DNA from: Podospora anserina
Lineage: Eukaryota
Length of the DNA stretch: 64,000 bases
Assembly (NCBI GenBank): GCA_017654855.1
Contig: CM030338.1
Coordinates: 1,612,001 to 1,676,000, forward strand
Reading direction: 5' to 3'
Positions 17,084 to 34,524 of the stretch are shown here, one piece after another (positions within the stretch are counted from its first letter, which is position 1; every line of letters starts with the position of its first letter). Below the pieces are notes generated by a model. The model saw nothing but the letters and a program-made list of their open reading frames with translations, searched no databases and was not told where the DNA came from. The position numbers and the translations under genes were made by a program.

Positions 17084-19015
17084 TCAAACAATCTCAATCA
17101 CCACAGCCTCCAAGTCATATATCCACCGCGCTTGGTAAGCATCTACCATGCCAACCCTCCTGAAACGTCCGTTAGACAGCTCTTCAAGCACTAGACCCTC
17201 CCCATTCCAGTCCTCGTCCCACTGAAGGAAAACAAAAACAATCCCACCCGTTCTCGGCCCAATATCATCAAAATGAACGTTCCCAATCTGGCTGTGCTTC
17301 CCGTCTTCATTCAATACCATAAGCTCCCATCTGCCGGCCTTTTCACGCACAAAAGGCTCTCTTAAAACTGCCGCCTTAATGCGTAACGAACCATCCGTCA
17401 CCTCCCCGAACGGCGCCTCCACAGCTGCAAGGCTGACCCAACAGTCCACCACCTCCATCTGCTTATACTTTGAAGCATTCACCATGAACGTAGCATTGTC
17501 ATAGTATACCCCCCAATTCACGCTCGCCCACGACCACGACGGAGCACGGTATCTTGCCGGCCTCGAAGACTTGGAGTCGAGTTCCTTCTCCCTGACCGCC
17601 CTCCAAAGAAGGTCAGGCACCAAAGACTTTTTCCAGAGTCCTGCGAGGTAGGAATCCCCAGTCACGCGGGAGAACTGCTCTGCGACGCCTGCCAGAGCGG
17701 GCAGCTTGTCCCCCTCGTGAGAGTGCCATCGCAGTGTGAAAGAAGCGACGATTTCAAGCCACGCAACACGCGCCTCCCATTTCTCTTGGGGCGACAACTC
17801 TTTGGATCGTTGGCCTGATGTTGAACAAGCGAGTATCCGGGGAAGGCGCACTCTGCTTGGTCCGCAGAGCGCCTGGCCTATGCTGACGGCTTCGGTCTGG
17901 CAGTTGTATTTGAGGGTCTCACTGTCGTAGATCAGAGTGCGCGAGGGGAGGACCTGCTCTTGCAGCGTCCAGGCGCGGGAGTCGATTGGTTCGACGGGGA
18001 GGCCTGATTTCCCATGAGGGGAGTATGCTTCGTGTGTGTTGAGAAGGGAGACGATGCCTACTCTGCTTCCTGTTGGGTCTCGGGGGTTGTTGTTGTGGAA
18101 GGGTACACGTGCTGATGGGTTTCTCTGCAGCCGGGTTTGCCTCAGGAAGCCTTCCCTTGAGGTAGCTGCGCTGGCTGCTATGATGGTGAGGTAGCTCTCG
18201 CGGTAGATGCGGCTCATTTGACAGATTTGTTTCAACTTGTCGGCGTCAGAATCTTGGATGATGCAGAGAGCATCAACCCAGAGGTATCGGTGCTTGAGAG
18301 AGTGGGTAACGAAGATGGCATCGCGGATGGTTCGTGGGAGGCTTGAGATGGGTATCCCATGGCCGACAATTTCTTCGATGTTGGAAGTGGTGAGTTTGAG
18401 AGGCTGGTCAATGCCCCAGACGTAGCTCAGCGTTATATACAGGCCTGGCTGAGTTCCATGTGTGAGAATGAGTCTGGGGTTTGACGGATCTGAGCAATCG
18501 ATGACGCGGTCTGGAAGCAGCGTGAATAGATCGGGGCTTTGGCAGTCTGCGTGAAACTTGACGCAGTTGTCGATGCATTCCTGAGCTAAGGCGAAGCTCT
18601 CCGGGGTACAGAGGTCTGTAATTTGTTCACGGGCCGCAAAATGAACGGCTGCTGGATCGTCTGCGACAGTGTAGATGTGATACAAGTTGGTGATTCCTTT
18701 ACCATTGATTACGACCCGAACTTCCAGTTGACTCTGCCGTGGGGTCCATGAATGGTTGTCCACATCATCGAGGCCCACGAAGACGGTGACAGTGGTTCCC
18801 CCAGGAGGGTATCCCAGCATCTTTATAAGTCTGTTGAGTTCGCCACACCAAGTGCATCCTCGCCTGACGGCCCCTTGCACGGCTTCATAGGGAGTGTCAT
18901 ATGTATACATGTCTTCCGGGGTCGTGTTCAAAAGGGACCTCCAACCATCAGGCGAAAAGATGGTCTTGAGATCTGTTTCGCAGACAAGCGAGAGCGGATC
19001 CAGTAACTGTTCCAT
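17084..19015 (-). CDS. HET-domain protein (heterokaryon incompatibility domain, TOL-like), intronless
   Basis: HET blocks YITLSYVWG, LPRTIRDAI...RYLWVDALCIIQD, MSRIYRESYLTI, SRAWTLQEQVL; downstream DKLPALAGVA, YLAGLW, RAPSWSWAS. Confidence 0.92.
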   Translation of the reverse strand: MEQLLDPLSLVCETDLKTIFSPDGWRSLLNTTPEDMYTYDTPYEAVQGAVRRGCTWCGELNRLIKMLGYPPGGTTVTVFVGLDDVDNHSWTPRQSQLEVRVVINGKGITNLYHIYTVADDPAAVHFAAREQITDLCTPESFALAQECIDNCVKFHADCQSPDLFTLLPDRVIDCSDPSNPRLILTHGTQPGLYITLSYVWGIDQPLKLTTSNIEEIVGHGIPISSLPRTIRDAIFVTHSLKHRYLWVDALCIIQDSDADKLKQICQMSRIYRESYLTIIAASAATSREGFLRQTRLQRNPSARVPFHNNNPRDPTGSRVGIVSLLNTHEAYSPHGKSGLPVEPIDSRAWTLQEQVLPSRTLIYDSETLKYNCQTEAVSIGQALCGPSRVRLPRILACSTSGQRSKELSPQEKWEARVAWLEIVASFTLRWHSHEGDKLPALAGVAEQFSRVTGDSYLAGLWKKSLVPDLLWRAVREKELDSKSSRPARYRAPSWSWASVNWGVYYDNATFMVNASKYKQMEVVDCWVSLAAVEAPFGEVTDGSLRIKAAVLREPFVREKAGRWELMVLNEDGKHSQIGNVHFDDIGPRTGGIVFVFLQWDEDWNGEGLVLEELSNGRFRRVGMVDAYQARWIYDLEAVVIEIV

Positions 19016-19997
19016 GGATGCAAGTGAGAGTCTTTTCCACTTCTGTAAAGAAAATCAGTTGTTGAAAATAGGTAATAATCCCAGGACTAGCCCTGACTTG
19101 TAGAATGCAAACTTGAGCCAACATAAGCCACGCCCGCCCCACATGCTTAGGCGCCTAGGTAGGAAATATTCCTTTGCTATCATGGGAAGCCTAAACAGTG
19201 CCCCAATGCGCTCTGATTTGATTGGCAGCCATGAGGGAGGTGGCGCAAGGGCAGTATTAGCTTTTTTGTTCACATCCACCCAACAGGTTCAGACCATTTG
19301 TTCTCTCCCTTAAAGGCTTTTATAGTACCAGGTAAAAACTACATAGCGCTACGCTGTGAGTTTTGGAAAGTGTCACCTAAGTACCTGCCGTTTTGCTCCC
19401 AGAAAGCCAGCATGTGGCCACCAGTGAAGGAACGTGCGGATGAAGTTAACGACCGCTCGCTCCTTCCCCCTCCCGTCAAGAAGGTGAAGCTCAGAATGTC
19501 GACTGTGAAAGCTTCCATGTTGCTTGCTCTGGCTCTCACAGCCCTTCAGTTGGAGATAAAGTACCTACTGGAGACTCTAATAAACCTACCATCCACTTTT
19601 TATCGTAATCTGAAAAGAAACCAACTCTCTTAAACTGGCCAAATGAGACGCTTCCTAGTACCTTACCCAAACCGCATCACCTGTTACATAGAACGTCGGA
19701 AGCAGACGGTCCATACAAGGTACTTTATGAAGTTCCTTTGCAGATTTATTGTATAAACCTCTGTTATTGGGTAAAGGGGTCATTCGGGGGCGTCTAGTTA
19801 AACCCCTGACCCTGTGCCGGGCTTGTCGACCATTGAATTTGTTAAGGTCCCATGGGTACTGGTTGGGAATAGCTGGCTGATTTCCCGCACTTTGGTCTTT
19901 CCCAATATTCGGACATCTTCCGTTAGGTAGTCTTCTCGCCATATTGCGAGCTTGAAGTCTGGACCCAGTTTTACCAAACAGCTGCCGCAAGAGAGCC

Positions 19998-21076: not shown

Positions 21077-24000
21077 CTATACAAGACAGATAATGTTCGG
21101 CTCCTTAGCCTCCTTCCATCTCAGAGCCTCTCTATACATGATACCGTGAATATGACACTCCCCCACGAGCCAGTACTGGCCGGCAACCCTTGCAGGCCTC
21201 AGTACGAAGGGTACTGCGCCGCCTCGGAACAAGCATATCTTGTCGCCGGGGCGGGCATTTCCTGGGACAAGTCCCACATACCCCTTGGTGGTGTGGCACA
21301 GTTTCGCCCTGAAAATGTGCTTGGTGAATGCCGCGGCTGTCCGCCAATACAGGACGACTGTCTCCAGCGAAGACCGTGGACGGTCTGTGTAGATGGCCAC
21401 GTTTCCTCCCTGTCTCGCGCAAAGTATCTCGTCCTTGAGATTTGCGGGCCACGTGCCGCTCTCTGGGACGTTGGTGCTGGCGTCACGTACTTGGTCGAGA
21501 GGCCAATGGGATCGGCCTAGTATCAATTCTGGGGAGCGTGGGCCGGTGGCTCCCCCTATGACCAGCATGAGCCTGACTGTTTCCAAAGACTCACCGGTTG
21601 GATACTCGGACAGAAAGGTAAAGAATCTTTCGAGATCCTCATTCGCCGCTGTGAACGAGGCAAAGTTGCCAGTAGCAACCCTTAGCTTTGTAGTGCTTGT
21701 AAGGCTGTCGATGATAGTCCCTCTTATAGCCAGGACTGGCTTGTGTGCCATGCCTCTCCCCGCTACACCTGGAATTTGCACCGAAGCCTCCGGCACGCCG
21801 CGGTGTCCGGCAAAATATCTTCTGGTCCCACTCCTCCAATTGGAGATTGTTTTGGGAAAGGAGCTACTTGTGAAATCGGGGATCCAGGACGAAGATGGGA
21901 ACGCTAGGGGTGACGGAACAGCTGGCCCTTCCAACCTTCCCGTTCCTGATCGGTACAGGAGATCCAACACCATCCCCTTCTCGACAAACTTCATTGCGTA
22001 TCGTCGCGCTACGGCCTCGACCCCGGACCCATAGTCTGGATCGAATTCCTCCTCTGCAACATCGGAAGCGATCCCCAGCAGGGCAAACATCTTGTCTTCG
22101 CATTTCGTCGCCTTGGTGTAGAAGGACTCGAGAAATTCGAAGAAGCCAAGCTTGTGTTGTGTATGCTTGAACTGCTGCCGGGCAAACCCCATTGCGAGCG
22201 CTGCCTCGGCATTGGGCAGTGCGTCGGTACGATTTTGCCATGCTAGGACGGTTGAGGCGAAGAAGTCCTCCCACCGGATGCTTTGGTTGCCGCAAAGGAC
22301 CTCGACGTTGGAGCCCAAGACAAGCTCCTGGACGATCCAAATGCGAGAGAACCACTCTCGTGAAAGTAACCTGTCTAGAGAGCCCCAGATCGCATCGTTG
22401 CTTCCCGGAAGTTTTGCTTTGACCCGGCCACCATGTTGAAGTTCTGTGAGAAAGCGAAGGGCGCCGCTGCTATGGCTATCGGACTCGCCTATCCAGGCTA
22501 GGATCACGGCTGCTTGCTGGTAAATCCGTTGCATGAAACGGATCTGCGCGCTCTTCTCGACCGAATTGTGCTGATCTATGCAGACGGCATCGGCCCAGAT
22601 TGACACGGGCAACTTCTCACGTCGGATTCGTCGCAGCGCGGCGGCTAGGGAGCGAGTTATTGGGATGTTACCTTCTGAAGTCTCTAGATTCTCGGCCATA
22701 TCGGGGTTTCCCCAGATGTAGGAGAGGGCGGAAAAGTGCGGCTTAGATGAAAGGGCTACGTGCTGTATAGACGCCTGGAGCGATGCCTCTGCTCGGCCCT
22801 TGTGTGGCTGAAGGTACAACAACCGGATGTGATGGGTTGCAAAGGGAGGTACTTGTAATGGTTGGACAGCTCTGGTTACGTGCTCGCCGCATCCATGTTG
22901 AGGTGGGAAGGGCTGGTACTGCCCGGAGTGTTCAAGGTACACTGCCACCCACCATATGGGACAATCGAGAGCAGACCTTTTGCAACCAGGGCCCAAGGGT
23001 CGATGAAGACAGCCACGCGACCATCCTTCGTGACGTTGTAAACACGGAGCAACACGAAAACATGGTCCGCTGCCTTGAGATTGCTTAACGCCAAATCCTG
23101 AGGCTTGAGCGAGATGGTGGTTAATGCGATATCATTTTCCGGTCAAAATGTTGCCAACTCATCAACTTAGCATGTGTATTTGTAAGTCGAAACGGTGTGT
23201 CAGTGGCCCTTCAGTTACATAGACGGACAGGTGAAATGTCACCTGCACCGCCAATATCTTCAGACGTTGGTCAACGTCTTCAAAAAGCCTCGACCGCAAC
23301 TTGTTGGACACGTCGGTGATCACAAAAGTGGCAGCAGGCTTTGCGTCTTGCTCGGGAGCGGGATGTCCAGCATCGACACGCAATGGGCTTTTCCAGTGCT
23401 TCGTGGGTTGATAACCATCGCCAAGGGATCGTGATAAGTATTCCGAGACCTGGCAGCATTCCCCGTCACTATGAGTACCGTACTTATCTCACGGGGAGGA
23501 CTTCAGCAAGCAAGGTGTCCGTATCTCACCGTGTATTCTCCCATAAACTGCGGGTCGTTGTGCCTCATTCCACCAAAGGTAACAGACAAAGGTCTCAGCG
23601 GAACAATACCATCCTTGATGTCGTGAAAAGTGTGGTTGGCGGCGGGTTCCCGAGACTCAAGATACTCCTTGTAAAGCCCTGCCACCGGCCTTACACCACC
23701 ACTGTCCTTGGAGTTCCCAGCGCTGTTGTGGTTTCTGCTAGAAGGACCCTGCTCTCCGTATGATTTCTGAAATTCGCGATCGCCCGTTGACAGGTCTCCC
23801 CCGGTAGGAGCGGGTGAAAACGTAATGCTGGCGCACCGCTTGCACGATGAGATGGCTGATTGGGTTAGGTATGTATGTTAGATGGCGGGCTTGGCGGGTC
23901 CTATCATGGCGCCAGAGAACTCACCTTGCTCCATAGAATTTGCTACGTCGTCCCATTCTGGGACGTCTTCCGGCACGCCTCTCCTGCGAAGGCTCGCGTC

Positions 24001-27000
24001 AACTCTTTCGGCGTTCCTTTCGGTGAGAACGTGGTGTAGCAACGATGTGCATTCGCCGTCCACGATGTTCAGCCATACCCAAAGCTCCTCCAGTAATTCA
24101 AGAGATGAGAACCCTAAAACCGCTTCCTCCGAGGATATGTATACGTCGAGCATATTTGGATGCAGATGCAGGGCCACGGCACCAGTTTCGGTCCGGCCCC
24201 TTTGCCCAGTACCTTTTATCTCCCAATCGAACTCAATTTTTCCCAGTAGGGATACATGAATGTGATTGAGCTGCGATACGATAGCTCGCCTCTCCGCGAT
24301 ACTGGTGTTGCTAGAAAGGAGACTGCAGAGGCGAGCTGTCGGTGACTGCTATACTCTCAAGTCTACCTATGATATAGACATGGACGAAGGTCAAGCGGGA
24401 GAATGGTTGGGAGTCGGAGGAAGAAAAGCGGTTCAATAGCATACCGGGCAATGTGGTGTGCTTTGGCACGAAGGCTCATAGTGTGGACAGGGCTATGTCC
24501 AGCGTCGTTTTGGACATGCGACACCTTGACTGCCAGTTTTGACAACATGCGATCCTCCAGTTGAAGGAGCTGGAACAGGTTCGAACAAGCTCGCATTTTT
24601 GATAAGCTCATGGTCAGGAAGGCCACTCTCCCTTCAGAACTTGCAAGCAGATGTGGACGGTCCGCAATATACCAGTCACCCCCGCGAAGGCTGGGTATGG
24701 CAGATCTGAGCTGGTAGAGCTGTCCCCCGGATTCTCCCAACCATGCTGGGAATATATTTAATGCCTTAAGCTGCAACACCCCAGCATCCCGATTCTTCTT
24801 CCACGCTTTTGGTTGGATTAGTGCGCTGGTGGCCTTGAGAACTTGCTGGATATGCTCTAACGAATCTGACGGAACTATACGACGAGCCTCGTTGACGAGG
24901 TCTTTCAGTGTAGTATTCGGAATTTTTAGCGAGTCACGGAAGAATGATTCAAGCTCTGGATAGTGCTGGATGATGCGTGGCGTCCGTTTCAAGCAACCCA
25001 GGCCATCCCACACGCAATCGTCGGTGCTGAGCCAAACACCCACAGAAGCAGACTCCCCTTTCAGGAGAAACAGCAGCTTAAGCTCTGCAAATGCTTTCCT
25101 GTTGCCTCTCATTAACTTCAAATACCACAAAATGAGATAACGTCGCCATACCTCGTATAGCCTTGATTTTCATCTGTCAGACTCGCATGGAGGTGTTGAT
25201 AGAGTCTTAACACTTCATCTCGCGTTGCTTCTGCGTGTTGCAACTGCCGTAACCGTGTGATGTAAGCGTCTGCGTTTACTGAGGTCTGCACCCCCAGGTA
25301 CTTCAAAACATTTCATGCGACATCTTCTGGGTCTGGAATGGCAAGGACGCAGGACCCAGGCTTTTCGGATGATGACAATAATGCATCAAGGCTAGACAGG
25401 ACGGCTTGCCGTGGCAGAAAAGTCCTATCAAGAGAGCGGCGGACGTTGTCATCGATGCAACAGGCACTTAGGGTTGCCAGCTCTGATCTCAAACGCTGCC
25501 TCGAGGTTTTCAGGGTCGCTTTTTCTGATTCGGCGAGGGATATGAATTCTGACTCGGATTCTGCGTCGTCCACTACATAATAGCGGTAGTGTTCCCACCT
25601 TCGACAGAGAAGTTCTAGCCATTTGTTACACTCTGACTGCTCAGCCAGGGATCGAAAGTCGGCAGATAGGACAAAGCCCAGATTGTCAGGGCCGTTCAGG
25701 TCGACGAGACGAGGAAAAACGGCAACGTGTAGATTTAACTGCAACCAATCGATCCAGTTCGGACAGTGGGTAAGTGGTGGCGACGCCTCTTCATGGAGAA
25801 ACGCGAATGAGTGTTCGTGTGAGACCAAGAGTTGGCTAGCAGAAAATGGGTCGTCAGAGCGCACATAAATTCGGGAAGCTCGACAAGGGCGAAGGTTTTC
25901 CACAACAAGCCAGAGGTCGGCCTTCGTCCATCCTGCTGTCCACCCAGCCCGGTAGAGAAACTGAGCGTGGCTTATCAAGGCGCGATGTGAAGTATCTTGA
26001 ACATCGACACTGGGCCGTACCCGATGTGCTGCTAATATCCTTTCGCAGACATCTGCCTGTTGAACCCTCCTTGCACCTAAGCTCTCTGTTAGCCGCCTTC
26101 TGTGAGAGTTCTTCGCAGCCTGAGGGGAAATCTCTGCCAGTCCAAGTCCTTTGGGTACGACCAAGTCGTTGTCATCAAGCGGTATGTCTAACAAATCTTC
26201 GGACTTTGCGGAGACCCATCGACCGTCACGTAACGGGACGATCTCGAGCTTCAATATGTCGCCCATGTAGTCTTCAAGAAGGTCACATAACACTTTACTA
26301 ATCTTCGCGTGCCACGAATCGGGCATTTACCGAAAGTTGTGTGTTTCGTTCGTAATAAACAAACTTAGTTCCTCGATAAACTGCGTTTTTGACAGAACAT
26401 TAACACCAAGCTGCATGATCCGCTCTTGCAGATCTGCATGGTACTTGTTGGAAAAATGGAGAAACGTAGAGTAGTCTTGTGGAATCAATGGCCTGTTGTG
26501 GTCGTCAGTGTAAGGGTCGGAAACCCAGGTGAGCTTTTCTGGGGCCATGAGGTGCCCGGCATCTGACTCTAACATTGGTGTTCGAGACAATAGGGTAATG
26601 ATATCTCCTGGAAGAGGCTCAAAAAAGCTGTCTGTTGTTGGGAAGGGCAGATAATACGGCCAGGTATAGCGAAGATGTCCACTATTCAGGGCGTGAACCG
26701 CCCTGAGGAAAGCTTTGGGAAGCTCATGCAAGAAGACTTGATTGCGGGCCGAAGACATGTCGACATCTTCACGGTTGGCAACGAGATCAAAGTCGGCATG
26801 GCAAACGAACTGCACCCTTGTCAGTTGACCAGAGAGTCTGAGAAGAACAAAATCACTGCTTGACGGACCCTGAACCCATAGTCTCGGATAGGAAGAAAAG
26901 CGAATGTGAAGCACGTAATATTTGAGCTCAGGGATCGGGGCTGCGGAAAGACCAAGACTATGTCTGACTGTTCGTTGGTCCCGTGTGAATCGGTCGATGG

Positions 27001-27808
27001 CAATCGAGATACACCATGCCTGTAAAGCACAAGAGGAGACTGCGCACTGTCTGGGAGTTCAAGGGTCTGTAATTCGCCAGGTTTGCACGTGATGTTCGGC
27101 CGTGTAAGATCGAAAGTAACTTCTTTGCCATGGAGGCCATCGTAGACAATACGGATATGCACTCTTCTTAGTCTCCGAAGAAGGAGTATGCTGCTCGAAT
27201 CCAATCTCTCGAGTTCTTGAAGAATCTCACTGGCATCGCATTCGGGAGAAAGGTGGAGGAGGAGCGATGTCCACCCAGCGATGCGCTCTTCCGGGAACGT
27301 TGACCACACCGGTATCATCATGCCGAGACTCTCCCTAGAATCGAACCTGAAGGAGTAACAGCCAGATGCGATGTACACTGATTCGGCAACCTTGAAAACA
27401 GACTTGAAGCCAATTCCTTTCCGGCCGATGCGAGTGCTCGAGCTTCGTGTTTTTGAGCTGTTGCCCATACTGCAGATGGCTTCTACGTCTTCCATTGTGA
27501 ACCCAGTTTCATTGGAATCAAACCGAAGCACTCGAATTTTGTACGTGATGGTTAGTGTGGGGTCATGGGCGACGTAATTGTTGTCATCAACATTCTGTAT
27601 CAACTCCCACAAGAAATGGGAGGGCCTTCGGTACATGTTTTTTGCAGGCTTGCGACAAATTAGAACGTAGTTGTGACGTGGCGGAGAGGATGCCTTGCAA
27701 GTTCGCGATTCCCTGTTGGTCTTTGGGATATCCGGTAGGATGGCCTACGCCTTTTAAGTCTCTTATTCTCATTATGTGACGCTCAGCGCCGGACGTCGAG
27801 ACTGGCAT
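21077..27808 (-). pseudogene. Disrupted large gene: sacsin/NO VEIN-like HATPase N-terminus + DUF3883-like segment + C-terminal HET domain (HET-6-like)
   Basis: N-terminal PSHFLWELIQNVDDNNY, NETGFTMEDVEAICSMGNSSK, IGRKGIGFKSVFKVA; intron 26810-26868 into FVCHADFDLVANREDV. In-frame stops at 26327-26329 (TAA), 25313-25315 (TGA) and 22876-22878 (TAA); frameshifts near 27640 and 22835. HET motifs IRLLYL, FSALSYIWG, IWADAVCIDQ, WFSRIWIVQEL, GYVGLVP, LVGECHIHGIM. Confidence 0.8.
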
Positions 27809-28001
27809 CTGGCCGGACACCTCTGCAACCGCAGAGTCATGCTGGGCAAGGCCGTCGCGACCCGTTGCCGGGCGAGCCAGTCGTTTCGCCAACCACATTC
27901 AGGCAGGTCGTTAGGTTTGGTGTAGTCCAGTTGAAAGAGTAATGAGTTGGTAGCGGTATCTGGCCACGAGTTTACGAGAATTTCAGTGCTTCTTGGGTAT
28001 C

Positions 28002-28703
28002 TTAGATAAAGTAAGTAGTAGATATACAAGTTAAAAATGCTGAGGTTAGGCAACTGGTAATAGGTTGGGTACCGATATGACCTTGACTTTCCTTCTTGTC
28101 CAATCGCATTTGAGCTGTCCGAAAACATTGCTTATGGCGGGATAAATTTGTCACTGGAATTAAGGTACGAAGTGCAAGTAACAGAGATTTTACCACTTCT
28201 ATTTCCCGATGGCAAGACTGTCGTGGGGCCCTTGGGAAAGGCGTCAAAAAGATAATACCGATATTGTTTTTGGTGCTCACGGGCCTACAGGCCATGGTTG
28301 GAAGACAGTTTGAACATCTGAACGAAGAATTGGACTGACTGCCAAGGCACGGCCAAAGCATGGCAGGTGTATAAGGTGTCAGGCAGGGCCTTGGCAGGCA
28401 GGTGAGGTGATTGTGATTTGTAAGCCGTTGACGCCGTTGAAAGTGAAGCTGATGGTGAGAGTAGGCACGGACCGTAGAGAGAATGGGTATCGTGTTGAGG
28501 ATGTGGGAGAGCAGTCGGGAGCGCAGGTGGGTTGGTTGATGGAAGTCGTGGGCAGTGATGGGACGGGAAGGCCTTGTGCAGGGAGGTTGATGGGTGTAGG
28601 TGCCAGTGCTGATGTCGATGCCGGTGTCAGTGCTAGGGTCGATTCCAGGGCTGGTGAGGGTGCCAGTGAGGACCTGGGTGGTGGATGTGATGATGGATGT
28701 CAT
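28002..28703 (-). CDS. Hypothetical protein with Cys cluster (CLPRPC..C..RCSNC..ACRP); possible intron from 28280
   Basis: Within ORF 28002..28910; ATG at 28703; GTGAG donor immediately after the ACRP codons. Confidence 0.35.
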   Translation of the reverse strand: MTSIITSTTQVLTGTLTSPGIDPSTDTGIDISTGTYTHQPPCTRPSRPITAHDFHQPTHLRSRLLSHILNTIPILSTVRAYSHHQLHFQRRQRLTNHNHLTCLPRPCLTPYTPAMLWPCLGSQSNSSFRCSNCLPTMACRPVSTKNNIGIIFLTPFPRAPRQSCHREIEVVKSLLLALRTLIPVTNLSRHKQCFRTAQMRLDKKESQGHIGTQPITSCLTSAFLTCISTTYFI

Positions 28704-29381
28704 GATGGATATAGGTGGTGTTGAGAAAGGGTTAGGGTTTAGTAGAGAGCGGTGAGGTTGGCAGTATTGGATGTGGGCACCTTGATGGGCAGGCGCGAGG
28801 TGCCCCACAATATCGGAGGTGGTGGTCATCGGTTGCCGGTCATCCATCTCAGTCAACACCGCAGACATAACTGAGATACGTGCCCTGTTGGCCTTCCTGA
28901 GAGAGAACAATTCTGGGGTTAGAAGTAATGAGAAGCGCCGATAAAAGGACGCTCCGAGTCGGGGCCGCTAACCGCCAGCTTAAGCAAAACAGAAAGAACT
29001 CGGGTTTGTAAACAAGACAATGTTCCGAACTCAACTCACTTTGATCATGATTCATAAACGGTGATCCAACATCAAATCGTAATAGTCTCAAGCTTGACTG
29101 CAAGCAGAGTTAACCCATTGTTCAAAGACATCATTTTTTTCCAAATTGCACCATGCATTGTTCTGTTGTACAAGTCTATTATTCGCAGTTCACCATCCTA
29201 AAAATATTCGTCTATTTAAGTACGAGGCTTCTTCCCTCATCACCATCCAAGTTTTTCTCATCATCATCTTTCTCATGCCCACTATTTGAGCTTTCTGACT
29301 GTTCATCCCAGTATCCCGCAAAGCCTGAAATCATCACCAACACCAACACTTACAAACCCATCACCCCAAACAACAGGCACC

Positions 29382-29579
29382 ATGTGTGTTTTCTATGAGT
29401 GGTTCTACTCCTGCGGTTGCAAGGTGCCGGGGTTGCTGCAATGCATGCACCGGTGTCCCGACGAGGAGCCCTGCCAATACCCTAGACCGCCGATCAAGAA
29501 GTATATGGACCATCCTTGCCCGCAGCTTCAGCGGGAGGGTAGACGTCTTCATCATGCAGGTGAGAAAGTACGTAGGTAG
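29382..29579 (+). CDS. Small Cys-rich protein, M-C-x8-CGC family, copy A (65 aa)
   Basis: CACCATG context; MCVFYEWFYSCGCKVPGLLQCMHRCPDEEPCQYPRPPIKKYMDHPCPQL...; four paralogues nearby. Confidence 0.7.
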   Translation: MCVFYEWFYSCGCKVPGLLQCMHRCPDEEPCQYPRPPIKKYMDHPCPQLQREGRRLHHAGEKVRR

Positions 29580-29596
29580 TGAATAGCAGGTGGCCT

Positions 29597-29660
29597 TTTT
29601 CCCTGGTGGAGGACGCGGTAGGATTAAGATGGTGGTCGATTTCTTCCCCTGGTGGGGAGG
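29597..29660 (+). promoter_or_regulatory. Two tandem CUGGU-loop hairpins (SRE-like) in the 3' UTR of copy A
   Basis: TTTTCC-CTGGT-GGAGGA (29597-29613) and TCTTCCC-CTGGT-GGGGAGG (29642-29660). Confidence 0.6.
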
Positions 29661-30169
29661 CTAGGATGGCAAGTGTCATTCTAGATCATATTGTTATAAA
29701 CATATCTTTTTTTTCCATCAAGAACTAATACTATACCATACTTGTGCTAATTGTGATGTGATATCTATCATCGGGCTTCTTGTTTACCAGGCACCTTTTT
29801 CTTTAGGAACTTGGAGAGAGATATACCAACTGTAAAGACCTTGGCAGTACGTCTACAGATATTGTTTAAGGACGCTCCATCGTCTCAGCAATTTCATTGT
29901 TCATAGAACAAATTGAGTAGTACACAGACTAATCACACAGTACAACCACCAAAGCATTGTATCAACTGCATCCTATCATCAACAACTCCATTGCCAACCC
30001 TCACTACCCCCTCCCAACACCATTATTTAAGCGCCACCCTTTCCTCACATTCATCTTAGCTTCTTCTCATCATCATCAGTACATCCATACACTCGAGACG
30101 TTTTGACAAAGTCTCCCCCCTAACCCAAACCAAACTCTCAACAAACCAATCCACTTCACTTACACAACC

Positions 30170-30358
30170 ATGTGTGAATACGAGCAATAGTTCTTCGCCT
30201 GTGGGTGTCCTGCTGGCTCTGTCCAGGTGTCCTACCTCTGCGCTGAGGTCAGAATTGCTGGCTGAGCTTGCCAGAGCCCTCAACCGATTATCAGGCGATA
30301 GCACATGTGTGCTGTTCATACTCCTCCTCCTCCTAAGAAGAGACGGAGTTACAAGTAG
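30170..30358 (+). pseudogene. M-C-x8-CGC family copy B with three in-frame stops (TAG 30188, TGA 30263, TAG 30299)
   Basis: Manual translation MCEYEQ*FFACGCPAGSVQVSYLCAEVRIAG*ACQSPQPIIRR*HMCAVHTPPPPKKRRSYK* aligns with copy A. Absent from the ORF track. Confidence 0.7.
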
Positions 30359-30385
30359 GTGAGTTGTTGAGATAACATGACAGTA

Positions 30386-30401
30386 CTTCCACAGGTGGGA
30401 G
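30386..30401 (+). promoter_or_regulatory. CAGG-loop hairpin (SRE-like) 3' of copy B
   Basis: CTTCCA-CAGG-TGGGAG, 6-bp stem including one G-U. Confidence 0.5.
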
Positions 30402-30888
30402 GGATAAGACGTGTTTTGGTAGAATGCCTACAGGTAAGTAAGTGAATGATGGTGATCAACCAAACCCTTTTTTTTCTTTGGGAATTTTGATACCAAAAAC
30501 GAATGAATTTCTTTTTTCTTGGACTTCTATTATCTTTTATCCTTGCTGTAATTGTGCTTTGTGATTACGATACTATATATTTGACCTCATATATGTCTTT
30601 GTCTCTGTCTGACTGTTGACGGAAGACTTCAAGGACTTGCAAAGACTCCTCTTACCTAACTCAAGACCACTGAGTAAATGTCCTTTTACCAAATGTTACG
30701 AGATTTACACAAAATTTAAGTGTGTATTAAAGCTGGTGCAGTATGGTAGGTACTAAACAATGGGCTTACAAAGTCACAGATCATAAAAGTCACACAGATC
30801 AATCAATATACACAACAAACACATGAACTGGCACACAATATTTCTTTCGAAAGATCTTTTTTTATTTTGATCATCACCCCCACCACAG

Positions 30889-30903
30889 CTCCCACCAGGG
30901 GAG
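30889..30903 (-). promoter_or_regulatory. CUGGU-loop hairpin (SRE-like) 3' of copy C
   Basis: Minus strand CTCCC-CTGGT-GGGAG. Confidence 0.6.
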
Positions 30904-30995
30904 GGAGCTAGGTATTATTAGTATATTATGAACTTACCAGTCATGTCTCAAAGATGACTGACTGCCTTCTGCAAACTTAACAGAACCTCTCATCC

Positions 30996-31145
30996 TCATA
31001 TTTCTCGCAACAAGACAAAATATACTCGCGCATGAAAACCCACTCCACACAGACCCAAAGCCACATGGGCGCATTTCTCGGCGCGGACCACATGGCCGGG
31101 GATGATGCAGCCGCAGCCGTAGCAGTATTGGGTGTGAATGCACAT
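30996..31145 (-). CDS. M-C-x8-CGC family copy C (49 aa; C-terminus possibly frameshifted)
   Basis: Manual translation MCIHTQYCYGCGCIIPGHVVRAEKCAHVALGLCGVGFHARVYFVLLREI*; CAACATG context; TATATAAA near 31300 upstream. Below the ORF-track cutoff. Confidence 0.62.
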   Translation of the reverse strand: MCIHTQYCYGCGCIIPGHVVRAEKCAHVALGLCGVGFHARVYFVLLREI

Positions 31146-31879
31146 GTTGTTGTTGTTGTTGGGTGGTGTGGATGGATGCGAGTAAAGTGTTGTTGTGAGA
31201 GGGGAGAGATGATGTGGTGGTTTGTTACTTACCGGAAGTAGGAAATGGTGATGATGATGATGATGATGGGATGAGAGGATTTGAGGCGGGGAAGAGCGGG
31301 TTTATATATCTATCTGATGGGACAATGGATTGTGGTCGAATGAATAGTAGAGGCTTTGTCTTCCTTCGTGTTCTTTGGGTTCAAGTTCTTAAAATAGTCA
31401 GTGGCACTATTAAGAACAATGCTTTGTCTCTTCATCTTGCCTTCTGAGAAGGTACACAAAATAGGCTTATAGGAGAGGGTAGGTAGGTAAGTAAGCTTTG
31501 TTTTACAGGCATCTCAGCCTTAATAGCTCTCGTAGCAGTTCGCCCACATACTTGCTGCAAACAGATACGTCGCAATAACACACCTAGGTACGTCAGCAGG
31601 CCTTCTTCTAGGATCCAGTCTTTGAAGTTTGAAGACATCGTAAGAGCGCGGGTTGCGACACAGAACAGCATCTCTTCTTCCAGGTGTAGTAGGAAGTTGA
31701 TAAGCAGTCAAAGAAACAACGGCCGTTTCGTACATAGGTAGGTATCACATTCAAAATTCAATGGTCAAGAAGAGAAAATAAATACTCCAGAGGAAAAAAG
31801 TTTTTTTATTATATTAAATACGTCCAAAAATGATCAAATCATCAATCAACCCGACGAAGTCTCCTACCTCATCCCCTCA

Positions 31880-31900
31880 CTCCTCCCACCAGGGGAGAAG
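31880..31900 (-). promoter_or_regulatory. Orphan CUGGU-loop hairpin (SRE-like)
   Basis: Minus strand CTTCTCCC-CTGGT-GGGAGGAG, 8-bp stem; no family ORF found upstream. Confidence 0.5.
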
Positions 31901-32285
31901 TTTTGTGTCGTGAATGATCACGGCGGTGCTGAAATAATAGTATTGTCTGAAGGGCAAAAGCGTTTGTTTTGTTGTAACAGGTGTTGTTCTGGAGTGTTGA
32001 AACCATGTGATTGTCCCCAAAGTAGTGCTACTAACACCTGCCCATCCGGTATCTTTGTCCACTTAGCAATGACCACATTAAGCAGGTTAACAGCTCTGTT
32101 TCCAGTTGCCAAAGCAATGTTTCAGGTGGGTTCTGGCTCATGAACAATCTCATTATCCTCTCCAGTTGAGCCTCACGGCTTTCATCTATTTAAGAACAGC
32201 TATCAAGTGCATTGCCGTCATGGATTCTTGTTTCCCACCAAATTATTCTAGGAAGTTCAACCGCAACACAGAATAGCCAAGCACC

Positions 32286-32480
32286 ATGGGTATCATGGAC
32301 CTAGTTCACTTGGGGTTTAAGCTTCTGGAGATGGGGCTTTTCATCGTATATGCGGTTGTGGCCTCCTGTATTTTGTATATTCTGTGGTTTACTGCCGTGG
32401 CAGTGGTGTTTTGGGTGCTACCGGAGACAATCGTAGTGCGCCGTAGACATATCCCGTTGAGATTTAGTCTCGACTTTTAG
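32286..32480 (+). CDS. Small hydrophobic (putative membrane) protein, 64 aa
   Basis: CACCATGG context, long hydrophobic stretch, upstream TCTATTTAAG at 32185 identical to the one before copy A. Confidence 0.35.
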   Translation: MGIMDLVHLGFKLLEMGLFIVYAVVASCILYILWFTAVAVVFWVLPETIVVRRRHIPLRFSLDF

Positions 32481-33158
32481 TTGGAGTCTGAAGTCAAGTT
32501 TTGTCAAGGATCTGGTTCTATAGACATGACCCAAGCTGAGTGAGAGCCAACAAAATAAAAACCCGAATTTATCAAAACATATCATCTACCTACGTTCCCA
32601 ATGTTACCTTGTGTATATCTACCAACGACTGTATTATCTCCCAGAACACGTACCCAGTGAATGTAATTTTAGAGATTACCTACCAGAGTACTGATGAAGG
32701 CATAACACCAAAGACTGCCGGCCATATAATGAGTATACCTCTGCTCTGGAGTTAAGAAGAGGTATCAGCAAGGAAACTCCGTATAAGTACCAACCAGCTT
32801 TTCAGCATTTCTTCCACGAACAGAAGCATATGCGGCTCCATGACGCCAATTATTGCAAGGGAAAGATCAACGGACTTGAAACAGAGTGAGTGATGTAGAT
32901 ACTTCAGTATTCTTCTCTATAAACGGTCATCATCCGTATTGATAATATCGTTATTCGTACCACAACATTATCCAGATGTCGGTCTACTTAAGCATCCTTG
33001 CCTTTCCGTCATGCCTCATCTCTTCTCTCATGACCATCATCAAACTCTCGAGCCTTTTTGATAGATAGGTATCTACCTACGTAAAGACTCAGACATCAAC
33101 ACTTCACCAACCCAACCAACCAAACCACCACCAACACCAACCACATATCTCATTCAAG

Positions 33159-33497
33159 ATGTTTGAATACTACGCCAACTACGTCTACTGCGGCTGTGAG
33201 GCTATTCCCCGCACAGAGAAAATCTGGACATGCCACTCTGTTACTACCCATCAGGTTCTTGAATGCTCCAACCCTGTTGTCGCGCCGAAAGCACGAGATT
33301 GGCCCTGCCCTATTCACCAGCCCGGTGTTCCCGATCCTCTGGACAAGGACAATGATGGGAAACTGGAGATCAAGCGGGAGAACAGGATCAGAGAGAAATT
33401 CGATTTTCTCACTCAAGATACTCCCAACCTGAATGACTCGGACGAAGAGGCAAGCGTGGAGGAAGGCAAAGAGGCAAGCGTAGAGCAAGGTAAGTAG
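33159..33497 (+). CDS. M-x9-CGC family copy D (112 aa, acidic tail with EASVExGK x2)
   Basis: MFEYYANYVYCGCEAIPRTEKIWTCHSVTTHQVLECSNPVVAPKARDWPCPIH...; same Cys pattern as the paralogues, first Cys replaced by Phe. Confidence 0.7.
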   Translation: MFEYYANYVYCGCEAIPRTEKIWTCHSVTTHQVLECSNPVVAPKARDWPCPIHQPGVPDPLDKDNDGKLEIKRENRIREKFDFLTQDTPNLNDSDEEASVEEGKEASVEQGK

Positions 33498-33506
33498 GGC
33501 CAAGTT

Positions 33507-33560
33507 AGGTAAGTAAGGTAAGTAAGGTAAGTAAGGTAAGTAAGGTAAGTAAGGTAAGTA
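33507..33560 (+). repeat. (AGGTAAGTA)6 tandem repeat directly after the copy D stop codon
   Basis: Six perfect 9-bp units followed by degenerate units, read directly. Confidence 0.92.
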
Positions 33561-34248
33561 AGGTATGTCAAGGCAAAGTAGGTGAGGCAAGTATTAATTA
33601 CTGTGTGATGACAACCAAAACATAAATGCAATAAAAACACTCTTTTTTATTTTTAACAACACTGTTCTTAACTCTGGATGACATATTTCTGACCGTAATC
33701 GTGTGTATTCTTCTCCTCAAGACCGAGGGATTAAAGATAAGGTAACTCGATGCCTCCATGCTGACCTGAGAATTGTAAATGTTTGCTTGAACCTCACCCT
33801 TACCTAAGTTACCTGAATTTACTAGAGACCTGCCGTTAGCCATATTGAACCATCCTGGGAAGTCCAGCTACAGCCTCTTCTCTGCAAAGTTAATTCTGCG
33901 CCTCAAGAGCCTACCTACCAAGCACCGTTTGTGAATGAAGCTATTTCAGGACTCAAGACAAAGCCCAATATACGGGGAAGATAGGAAGAAGAGAACAGAC
34001 AAAGACATCAATCCCTAATGTAATATCCCATCAGACAATCCCATTGTATATTCTCCGCTACACAAATCCCCACAGACTAACAACCAACTCTTCCACCCCA
34101 TCCATCTCACCACAACTTCTCATCATCGTCATTATCACTCACTCACTCAACCCCATCACCAATCTACCAACACCCACCACCTCAAGCAGGTAAGTATTTA
34201 CCCCCCCTTCCCCTCCCCCCCCACTCAACCCACAAACACCAGCACAAA

Positions 34249-34464
34249 ATGTGCATCTACACCTCCAACATCTGGGCCTGCGGCTGCGTGGTCAAGAACA
34301 AACCCGCCGTCCGCACCCATCCCTGCAGCCACGTTCTCCAGGGGGCCGCTTGCCCTACCCCGGCGGCAATCACTGTTCGGGCAGTTTACATTGATGGGAA
34401 GTGCTACCGTCATCATATGGAGCATAGGGGTCGTGAGCATCGTGGGGATGGGAGACATAACTAA
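34249..34464 (+). CDS. M-C-x8-CGC family copy E (71 aa); possible 5'-UTR intron 34190-34242
   Basis: MCIYTSNIWACGCVVKNKPAVRTHPCSHVLQGAACPTPAAITVRAVYIDGKCYRH...; CAAAATG context; GTAAGT..CAG just upstream. Confidence 0.72.
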   Translation: MCIYTSNIWACGCVVKNKPAVRTHPCSHVLQGAACPTPAAITVRAVYIDGKCYRHHMEHRGREHRGDGRHN

Positions 34465-34524
34465 ACTAACTAACTAGGTGGGTTGAGTAAAAAAGTGTTT
34501 GAGAAAAAGCTCTTCCTTTTTTCC

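Follow-up and report, generated by a model that had tools for sequence, protein, structure and literature searches.

The 64,000-nucleotide stretch of the Podospora anserina genome analyzed here (contig CM030338.1 of assembly GCA_017654855.1, positions 1,612,001 to 1,676,000, forward strand; referred to as the window, with its first letter as position 1) carries a series of short, diverged gene copies between 29.2 and 34.6 kb whose deduced products begin with the same cysteine-containing motif. The original prediction for this locus had described five short open reading frames (ORFs) that share M-[CF]-x8-C-G-C. In a six-frame translation of the window, M-x9-C-G-C matched five times, at 29382(+), 30170(+), 31145(-), 33159(+), and 34249(+). 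All of these matches lie within 29382-34249, and each reads M-[CF]-x8-C-G-C. The mean number of matches to M-x9-C-G-C in 200 composition-preserving shuffles of the window was 0.14, with a maximum of 2, and for the stricter M-[CF]-x8-CG[CH] the shuffle mean was 0.01. We designated the five copies c1 to c5 in order of position. Thus, all five predicted starts and the motif were recovered, but open frames head only four of them (c1, c3, c4, and c5); c2 is not an ORF but a pseudogene.

Repeated gene units between 29.2 and 34.6 kb

Cys11, Gly12, and Cys13 are invariant in all five aligned rows. The copies had also been predicted to have two further spaced cysteines and, in most of them, a late C-x2-H/L. 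A Cys at position 24 to 26 is likewise invariant in all five rows, and a late C-x2-[HL] is present in c1, c4, and c5, and in c2 past its stop codons, but not in c3. Residues between the cysteines have diverged as strongly as had been proposed, with pairwise identities to c5 of 24 to 37% in the five-row alignment, and the DNA of the units is approximately 50 to 60% identical between copies. The rapid pace of diversification that had also been proposed was not demonstrated, as there was no orthologue by which to date it. tblastn within the window linked c3 with c5 (E 6.5e-6), c1 with c2 (E 2.2e-4), c1 with c3 (E 3.1e-4), and c5 with c2 (E 0.017). c4 was counted as a family member because it has the motif, a D-x-P-C-P stretch in common with c1, and the unit architecture described below. 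A candidate extra copy at 43931(-) (tblastn E 0.068) was rejected; only its first five residues are alike, there is no CGC, and a stop falls at codon 15.

The repeated entity is a whole gene unit of approximately 450 bp, which extends beyond the peptide motif alone. All five units have a TATA-like box at -146 to -202 from the ATG and a TCATCA-type run at -103 to -131. The leaders of the five copies (-100 to -1) are 70 to 82% A+C and 4 to 10% G, and position -3 is an A in all five, in agreement with the CA-rich leaders and good start contexts that had been noted from the sequence. On the 3' side, the exact 11-mer CCCCTGGTGGG is found in c1, c3, and c5 at +244 to +278 from the ATG, whereas the motif is degenerate in c2 and there is none in c4. 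The window has four exact copies of the 11-mer, all within the cluster and on the strand of their unit, compared with a chance expectation of 0.11, and none of 100 shuffles reached four. The word TCATCATC, which represents the TCATCA-type run in c1 and c5, has 26 matches across the window, 10 of them inside the cluster; it is therefore not cluster-specific and carries little weight alone. Because whole units are repeated, the local amplification postulated in the original prediction is supported. The G+C content of the cluster is 0.42 to 0.49, versus 0.51 to 0.56 in its flanks. Repeat-induced point mutation (RIP) was considered as the source of the divergence and rejected, since the cluster (TpA/ApT, 0.86; (CpA+TpG)/(ApC+GpT), 1.18) does not reach the usual RIP thresholds.

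One alternative is that conservation acts on an RNA or DNA element and not on a protein, in which case the units would be small non-coding transcripts or promoter/terminator modules made up of the leader and the 3' hairpin 11-mer. The 11-mer, exact at four places, is better conserved than the coding sequence, and a 6-bp hairpin can be drawn for it in which one pair is compensatory across the five rows, although these are too few sequences for a structure claim. However, the best conserved block besides the 11-mer begins exactly at the ATG, amino acids are conserved while their codons change synonymously, and c4 has the coding motif yet lacks the 11-mer. Furthermore, the listed contigs of probable RNA over c1 to c3 (see below) end before the 11-mer, though contigs cannot show transcript ends. 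We consider it very unlikely that the units are conserved as RNA or DNA elements.

Unit c1 (29213-29656, +) has its TATA-like box at -169 and TCATCATC at -124, followed by the CA-rich leader, a coding frame for 65 amino acids with 7 Cys and 4 His (29382-29579, +), and the exact 11-mer at 29646-29656. Unit c2 (30024-30398, +) has a TATA-like box at -146, TCATCATCATCA at -103, a leader, the broken coding frame of the pseudogene (30170-30358, +), and the degenerate 3' motif CCACAGGTGG at +219. Unit c3 lies on the opposite strand (30891-31308, -), with a TATA-like box at -163, a (CAT)n/TCATCA run at -124, a leader, a coding frame at 30996-31145 (-), and the exact 11-mer at 30891-30901. It is the shortest copy, encoding 49 amino acids with 6 Cys and 4 His, and ends without the late C-x2-H. 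In another frame, the end of c3 (30990-31040, -) encodes Y-I-x3-C and a final Cys, similar to what is found near the C-terminus of c5. The original tail of c3 may thus have been lost by a frameshift; the likeness amounts to 4 to 5 residues in 14 and went undetected by tblastn.

Unit c4 (32985-33577, +) has the TATA-like word TACTTAAG at -174 and TCATGACCATCA at -131, and its leader contains a 20-mer that is 90% like one in the c1 leader. The coding frame (33159-33497, +) specifies 112 amino acids, with F instead of C at position 2. At the end of its acidic tail (net charge, -9), a 24-nt sequence is duplicated in tandem (33445-33492, 88% identical). A nine-base microsatellite, (GGTAAGTAA)n, of about eight copies (33493-33577) begins at the c4 stop codon, with the consequence that a splice-donor-like GTAAGT is repeated. 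From the duplication and the adjoining microsatellite, the c4 tail seems to have grown by repeat expansion. Unit c5 (34047-34537, +) has a weak TATA-like box at -202, TCATCATC at -129, a leader that is 50% C, a coding frame for 71 amino acids with 6 Cys, 7 His, and a basic, His-rich tail (34249-34464, +), and the exact 11-mer at 34527-34537. The fourth exact 11-mer (31885-31895) lies in a region (31786-31896, -) that resembles the 3' region of c5, with 68% identity over 114 nt (E 6e-6). No recognizable coding part was found upstream of its 11-mer, and from this likeness the region is read as the 3' relic of a sixth unit.

Open frames and probable transcription of the units

The four open frames begin at homologous ATG codons. 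From this ATG, each frame is longer than in composition-matched shuffles of the same unit, with P values of 0.032 for c1, 0.057 for c3, 0.0015 for c4, and 0.022 for c5, the product of which is approximately 6e-8; c2 failed this comparison. The conserved Cys and Gly codons differ synonymously among copies (TGC/TGT and GGT/GGG/GGC). The units are paralogous over their whole length, and frames have been kept open despite near-saturated divergence.

Assembled contigs from public sequencing runs that may represent RNA cover the cluster. The RNA status of these runs (X16 to X20) is a software guess, and none is recorded as RNA. X16 and X17 are from one study of the same organism, hold 21 to 23% of the words of the window, and have depths of 2 to 5. 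Among the 14 listed X16 and X17 pieces that start at or after 29200, 12 overlap units c1 to c5; the other two are a piece of 39 nt that lies in the microsatellite downstream of c4 and a piece over the c5 3' motif (34474-34964). The covered span is 29306-29638 for c1 (contigs 29306-29456, 29469-29638, and 29418-29614), 30092-30383 for c2 (30092-30242, 30100-30250, and 30234-30383), 30960-31211 for c3 (a single contig), 33067-33490 for c4 (33067-33263, 33180-33330, and 33325-33490), and 34240-34423 plus 34395-34958 for c5 (one contig each). None of the X16 and X17 pieces listed falls in the spacers at 29639-30091, 30384-30959, 31212-33066, and 33554-34239. These results suggest that all five units are probably transcribed, which provisionally supports the original prediction on this point. 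No splice joints were reported in the contigs over the cluster, and contigs continue past the c1 stop codon, so that the frames there do not represent the initial exons of spliced genes.

The c2 frame is interrupted by three in-frame stops without a frameshift: TAG at codon 7 (30188-30190), TGA at codon 32 (30263-30265), and TAG at codon 44 (30299-30301). The CGC motif of c2 is reached only through the codon 7 TAG, and c2 aligns with c1 past its stops (tblastn E 2.2e-4, 44 residues). In perithecia of Fusarium and Neurospora, A-to-I editing converts premature UAG codons of pseudogenes to UGG, and the sections of these reports available to us state that such codons are mostly derived from TGG and that edited sites lie mostly in hairpin loops (PMC10776026, PMC7306014). 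c2 resembles the pseudogenes described there in being a transcribed copy with an in-frame TAG at an ancestral-type TGG site, since its first TAG stands opposite a TGG of its paralogue c1, and in that the A of this TAG is placed in a predicted 4-nt hairpin loop, although the fold is no better than those of shuffles (z, -0.5). It differs from them, as far as they are described in those sections, in having three stops, one of them a TGA in which a G precedes the A and another a TAG (codon 44) in a predicted stem. Thus, the pattern of premature stop codon editing, a TGG-derived UAG in a hairpin loop, fits one of the three stops. No A-to-G difference was seen in the contigs over c2, for which the tissue of the runs is unspecified and from which rare variants are dropped. 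It is much likelier that c2 is a plain pseudogene than an edited copy. We give very little credence to a fuller scenario in which the copies would be translated metal-binding Met-Cys microproteins, co-regulated by the shared promoter and 3' hairpin, with c2 restored in sexual tissue by A-to-I editing and the proteins serving as stage-gated, diversifying partners of the neighboring allorecognition genes. c2 nevertheless provides a concrete site at which to pose the question of restorative RNA editing.

Relatives, residue content, and interpretation of the family

Database searches recovered little. Pfam assigned no family to any of the four intact ORFs at E <= 10. A word-indexed search of 5.8 billion proteins with the four-copy alignment yielded, for proteins of near length, 21 candidates and a single match; the same search for longer proteins gave 1,020 candidates, none at E <= 10, and c5 alone gave no candidate. 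The single match (P0001) is a 79-amino-acid Logan protein in which 3 of 75 aligned residues differ from the c4 tail, and its first four residues match an ORF in another frame at 33263 (comparison over 33263-33494). The simplest reading of a start in this other frame is a short frame-breaking insertion in c4 of that relative. Together with the broken c2 and the relic of the sixth unit, the other-frame start in the relative fits the birth-and-death evolution that had been proposed for the family. A HMMER profile of the five copies had three matches at E <= 0.001 among 1.84 billion representative proteins, and these were rejected as spurious because they are internally repetitive proteins in which 4 to 7 repeated stretches scored and which lack an M-C-x8-CGC start. 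Pattern matches in JGI metagenome contigs (178 for c4 and 598 for c5) were not confirmed by tblastn in any case.

Exact look-up in a collection of 15 billion proteins found c1, c3, and c5 absent and c4 present only as a Logan call from 12 contigs. At least 15 runs hold all or nearly all of the DNA of the window (share of sampled words, 0.99 to 1.00), and therefore the three missing ORFs are unannotated in the sets searched. This result is in line with the suggestion that the copies are poorly visible to gene callers. Antisense ORFs overlap c1 (29361-29555, -), c2 (30056-30319, -), c3 (31032-31241, +), and c5 (34225-34458, -); they encode 64, 87, 69, and 77 amino acids, respectively, and have no common start or motif. 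These antisense ORFs could be what automatic gene callers pick over the sense frames. A literature search of main texts found no description of an M-C-x8-C-G-C family. The paralogous micro-gene family is new and unannotated, although clusters of orphan genes close to allorecognition genes are known as a general kind.

It is possible that the copies are not lineage-specific but belong to a wider family of catalogued but unnamed ascomycete hypothetical proteins of 65 to 80 amino acids, too short and too diverged to be linked by sequence. A Met-Cys start with a Cys-Gly-His/Cys turn after it is common to many hypothetical proteins of ascomycetes. c1 and c5, which are 25 to 28% identical to each other, both matched the same two unnamed Ascomycota clusters in the ESM Atlas (73 amino acids with 77 members and 65 amino acids with 57 members) at scores of 0.89 to 0.90, with 193 to 201 of 256 features shared. 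However, scores of 0.9 are reached by 4 to 10% of shuffled proteins, the recognition values (2168 and 2074) are under the 2300 mark, and the lead comes without an alignment or a sequence. In addition, the profile search of 1.84 billion proteins returned only the three repetitive and unrelated matches. We therefore regard membership in a wider ascomycete family as a possibility, if a rather doubtful one.

The four intact copies contain 7 Cys in 65 residues (c1), 6 in 49 (c3), 5 in 112 (c4), and 6 in 71 (c5), or 4.5 to 12%, together with 3 to 7 His and one C-x-C per protein, and 3 to 5 aromatic residues are found within the first 10 positions. Tail charge is +4 in c1 and +6 in c5 (basic) and -9 in c4 (acidic). 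By a rough hydropathy window, with no dedicated predictor used, no copy has a signal-peptide-like N-terminus, as had been claimed; the maximum mean hydropathy over 10 residues is 0.74 to 2.19, and no basic n-region is followed by a hydrophobic core. The original prediction that the proteins bind zinc did not receive comparable support. The copies fall into no catalogued zinc-finger or zinc-ribbon family of Pfam and have no recognizable zinc-binding fold, a profile search of the PDB gave one chance-level match (E 1.4) that was rejected, leaving no solved-structure relative, and AlphaFold2 models from shallow alignments of five and four rows had mean predicted local distance difference test (pLDDT) scores of 42.7 and 46.0, without a confident fold.

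We favor, with moderate confidence, the interpretation that a single small gene unit encoding a cytosolic mini-protein was duplicated long ago and that its copies make up the tandem cluster from 29.2 to 34.6 kb. Each unit would have its own TATA-type promoter, a CA-rich leader of 70 to 90 nt, and no intron, and would encode a cytosolic mini-protein with an M-C-x8-C-G-C start, 5 to 7 Cys, and 3 to 7 His. c1, c3, c4, and c5 would still be open, with c2 a transcribed pseudogene and the sixth unit reduced to its 3' relic. As a mechanism, the conserved N-terminal Cys/His set might form a small knuckle or hairpin built around a bound metal ion (Zn or Cu), and partner specificity might reside in the tails, which diverge freely and are basic in c1 and c5 but acidic in c4. 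This picture of a metal-stabilized N-terminal knuckle with a partner-specific variable tail comes from the residue pattern alone and is put forward tentatively.

Several observations weigh against the interpretation of the cluster as a family of functional mini-protein genes. Identity by codon position is weakly periodic over the first 13 codons (0.65/0.60/0.57). The RNA label of X16 and X17 is guessed, they represent a single study, and their depth is only 2 to 5. Coverage of c1 to c4 is absent from runs X18 and X20, which belong to two further studies, although this is not evidence of silence. The broken c2 is covered by contigs as well as the intact copies are, and transcription therefore does not show function. 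Both structure models are of low confidence, so that metal binding is without computational support. c4 is weakly linked by tblastn (c4-c2, E 6.1) and lacks both Cys2 and the 3' 11-mer. No homologue supports cross-species constraint, and c4 of the relative appears to carry a frame-breaking indel.

Many of the same observations would be expected if the array were transcribed but functionless, made up of degenerating duplicates or of proto-genes, with short frames that luck and base composition have left open and with peptides, if any are made, that have no role. For example, coverage of the broken c2 like that of the other copies, decay of the sixth unit to a relic, truncation of c3 relative to c5, the apparent frameshift in c4 of the relative, the lack of homologues and of a confident fold, and the weak codon periodicity of conservation would all be consistent with such an origin. 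However, luck and composition do not readily account for four frames of 49 to 112 codons that are open from a homologous ATG at approximately 50 to 60% nucleotide identity, with the small product of P values given above, nor for Cys11, Gly12, Cys13, and Cys24-26 remaining invariant through synonymous codon changes, nor for the A at -3 in all five copies. A functionless array is thus considered unlikely, though to be kept in mind. Should the four open copies be translated, they would constitute a new intracellular cysteine/histidine mini-protein family that standard annotation has missed; should they not be, the cluster is an unremarkable set of duplicates in decay. The intact, truncated, broken, and relic copies together make up a compact natural series on the retention and loss of very small genes.

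Genomic neighborhood and comparison with known systems

Twenty large ORFs of the window were scanned against Pfam, and 11 had no family. Two ORFs with the HET domain (PF06985) lie 6 to 12 kb from c1, at 17084-19054(-) (E 8.3e-32) and 21077-23131(-) (E 4.2e-30), as the original prediction of neighboring HET genes had it, but the toxin-like genes that it also named were not recovered, no toxin family being found among the 20 ORFs scanned. A Sacsin-like ORF (26821-27744) lies left of the cluster, and an NAD-binding dehydrogenase-like ORF (35228-35923) lies directly to its right. Farther out, the window contains SET, NAD-glutamate dehydrogenase, kynureninase, velvet, and RRP5 genes. The family and the two HET-domain genes form an island of variable genes between housekeeping genes.

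The position of the dehydrogenase-like ORF directly downstream is of interest for another explanation, that the copies are precursor peptides of a ribosomally synthesized and post-translationally modified peptide (RiPP), with a conserved leader and a variable core. Short peptides with a conserved N-terminus and a variable remainder, present in several copies, are consistent with RiPP precursors. Fungal RiPP tailoring enzymes include UstYa-type oxidases, prolyl oligopeptidase, and fused methyltransferase. However, no such tailoring family was found among the 20 neighboring ORFs scanned, the copies have no signal peptide and no repeated core, and their variable parts differ more than twofold in length. 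A role as RiPP precursors is therefore extremely improbable.

Contigs of four runs cover the region upstream of the dehydrogenase-like ORF, from 34411 or 34473 to 35000, and the X17 contig at 34395-34958 connects it with the end of the c5 coding frame. It may thus be that the long 5' leader of the neighbor overlaps the 3' end of c5, including the 11-mer, or is co-transcribed with it. Midway along the cluster, an ORF at 32286-32480(+) encodes a strongly hydrophobic protein of 64 amino acids (maximum hydropathy, 2.72). It is covered by an X18 contig (32274-32471), and a TATA-like word at 32181-32197 is 88% identical over 17 nt to that of c1 (29207-29223). The sequence of this ORF has no relation to that of the CGC family, and its product is not in the 15-billion-protein collection. 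Left of the cluster, a run of long open frames at 24363-28967(-), one with a Sacsin-domain match (E 1.5e-10), has the appearance of a single large gene, the rest of which is without a Pfam match; an X20 contig of 4,500 nt ends within it at 28919. At position 28956, contigs of X16 (depth, 6 of 6) and X18 (depth, 3.2 of 3.2), from two studies, read A in place of the G of the window. The site lies in a transcribed region left of the cluster, and strain variation is the probable cause; the direction of the change is not that of A-to-I editing on the + strand.

Comparison with known small cysteine-containing proteins reveals partial likenesses. Fungal metallothioneins are small cytosolic Cu/Zn proteins that lack a signal peptide and contain a C-G-C (C-x-C) motif, and the copies resemble them in small size, predicted cytosolic location, a start that is not signal-peptide-like, and C-G-C. 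Metallothioneins also have a very high share of Cys, repeated C-x-C or C-x-x-C clusters, and few aromatic residues. The copies were not assigned to this group because their Cys content is only 4.5 to 12%, the N-terminus is rich in aromatic residues, and there is no run of C-x-C or C-x-x-C. Secreted small cysteine-rich proteins of ascomycetes, such as PAF/AFP antifungals and effectors, are likewise small, Cys-rich, fast-diverging, and sometimes found as local families in the descriptions available to us. They differ from the copies in secretion, since by the rough test the copies have no signal-peptide-like N-terminus, and a conserved motif that starts at residue 1 cannot be a cleaved leader.

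The closest described pattern, in the portion of that report available to us, comes from Neurospora crassa, in which lineage-specific genes (LSGs) are found clustered with HET-domain genes (PMC10684091). The Neurospora LSG clusters and the cluster described here are alike in short genes for which no homologue was detected (here, in the protein sets searched), local duplication, long non-coding spacers, and physical association with HET-domain genes. The proteins of the Neurospora LSGs have a mean length of approximately 192 amino acids and a minimum of 26, and 515 of 670 of the genes have introns (PMC10684091); the word "cysteine" does not occur in the accessible text of that report. Thus, the Neurospora LSGs are annotated, longer, and mostly intron-bearing, whereas the copies in P. 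anserina encode 49 to 112 amino acids, are intronless, and constitute one paralogous family. Furthermore, the Neurospora clusters are described there as mostly subtelomeric, whereas the window also holds housekeeping genes. If the open copies are translated, the cluster extends the Neurospora pattern of orphan genes associated with HET genes to recognizable paralogous micro-genes with shared regulatory elements.

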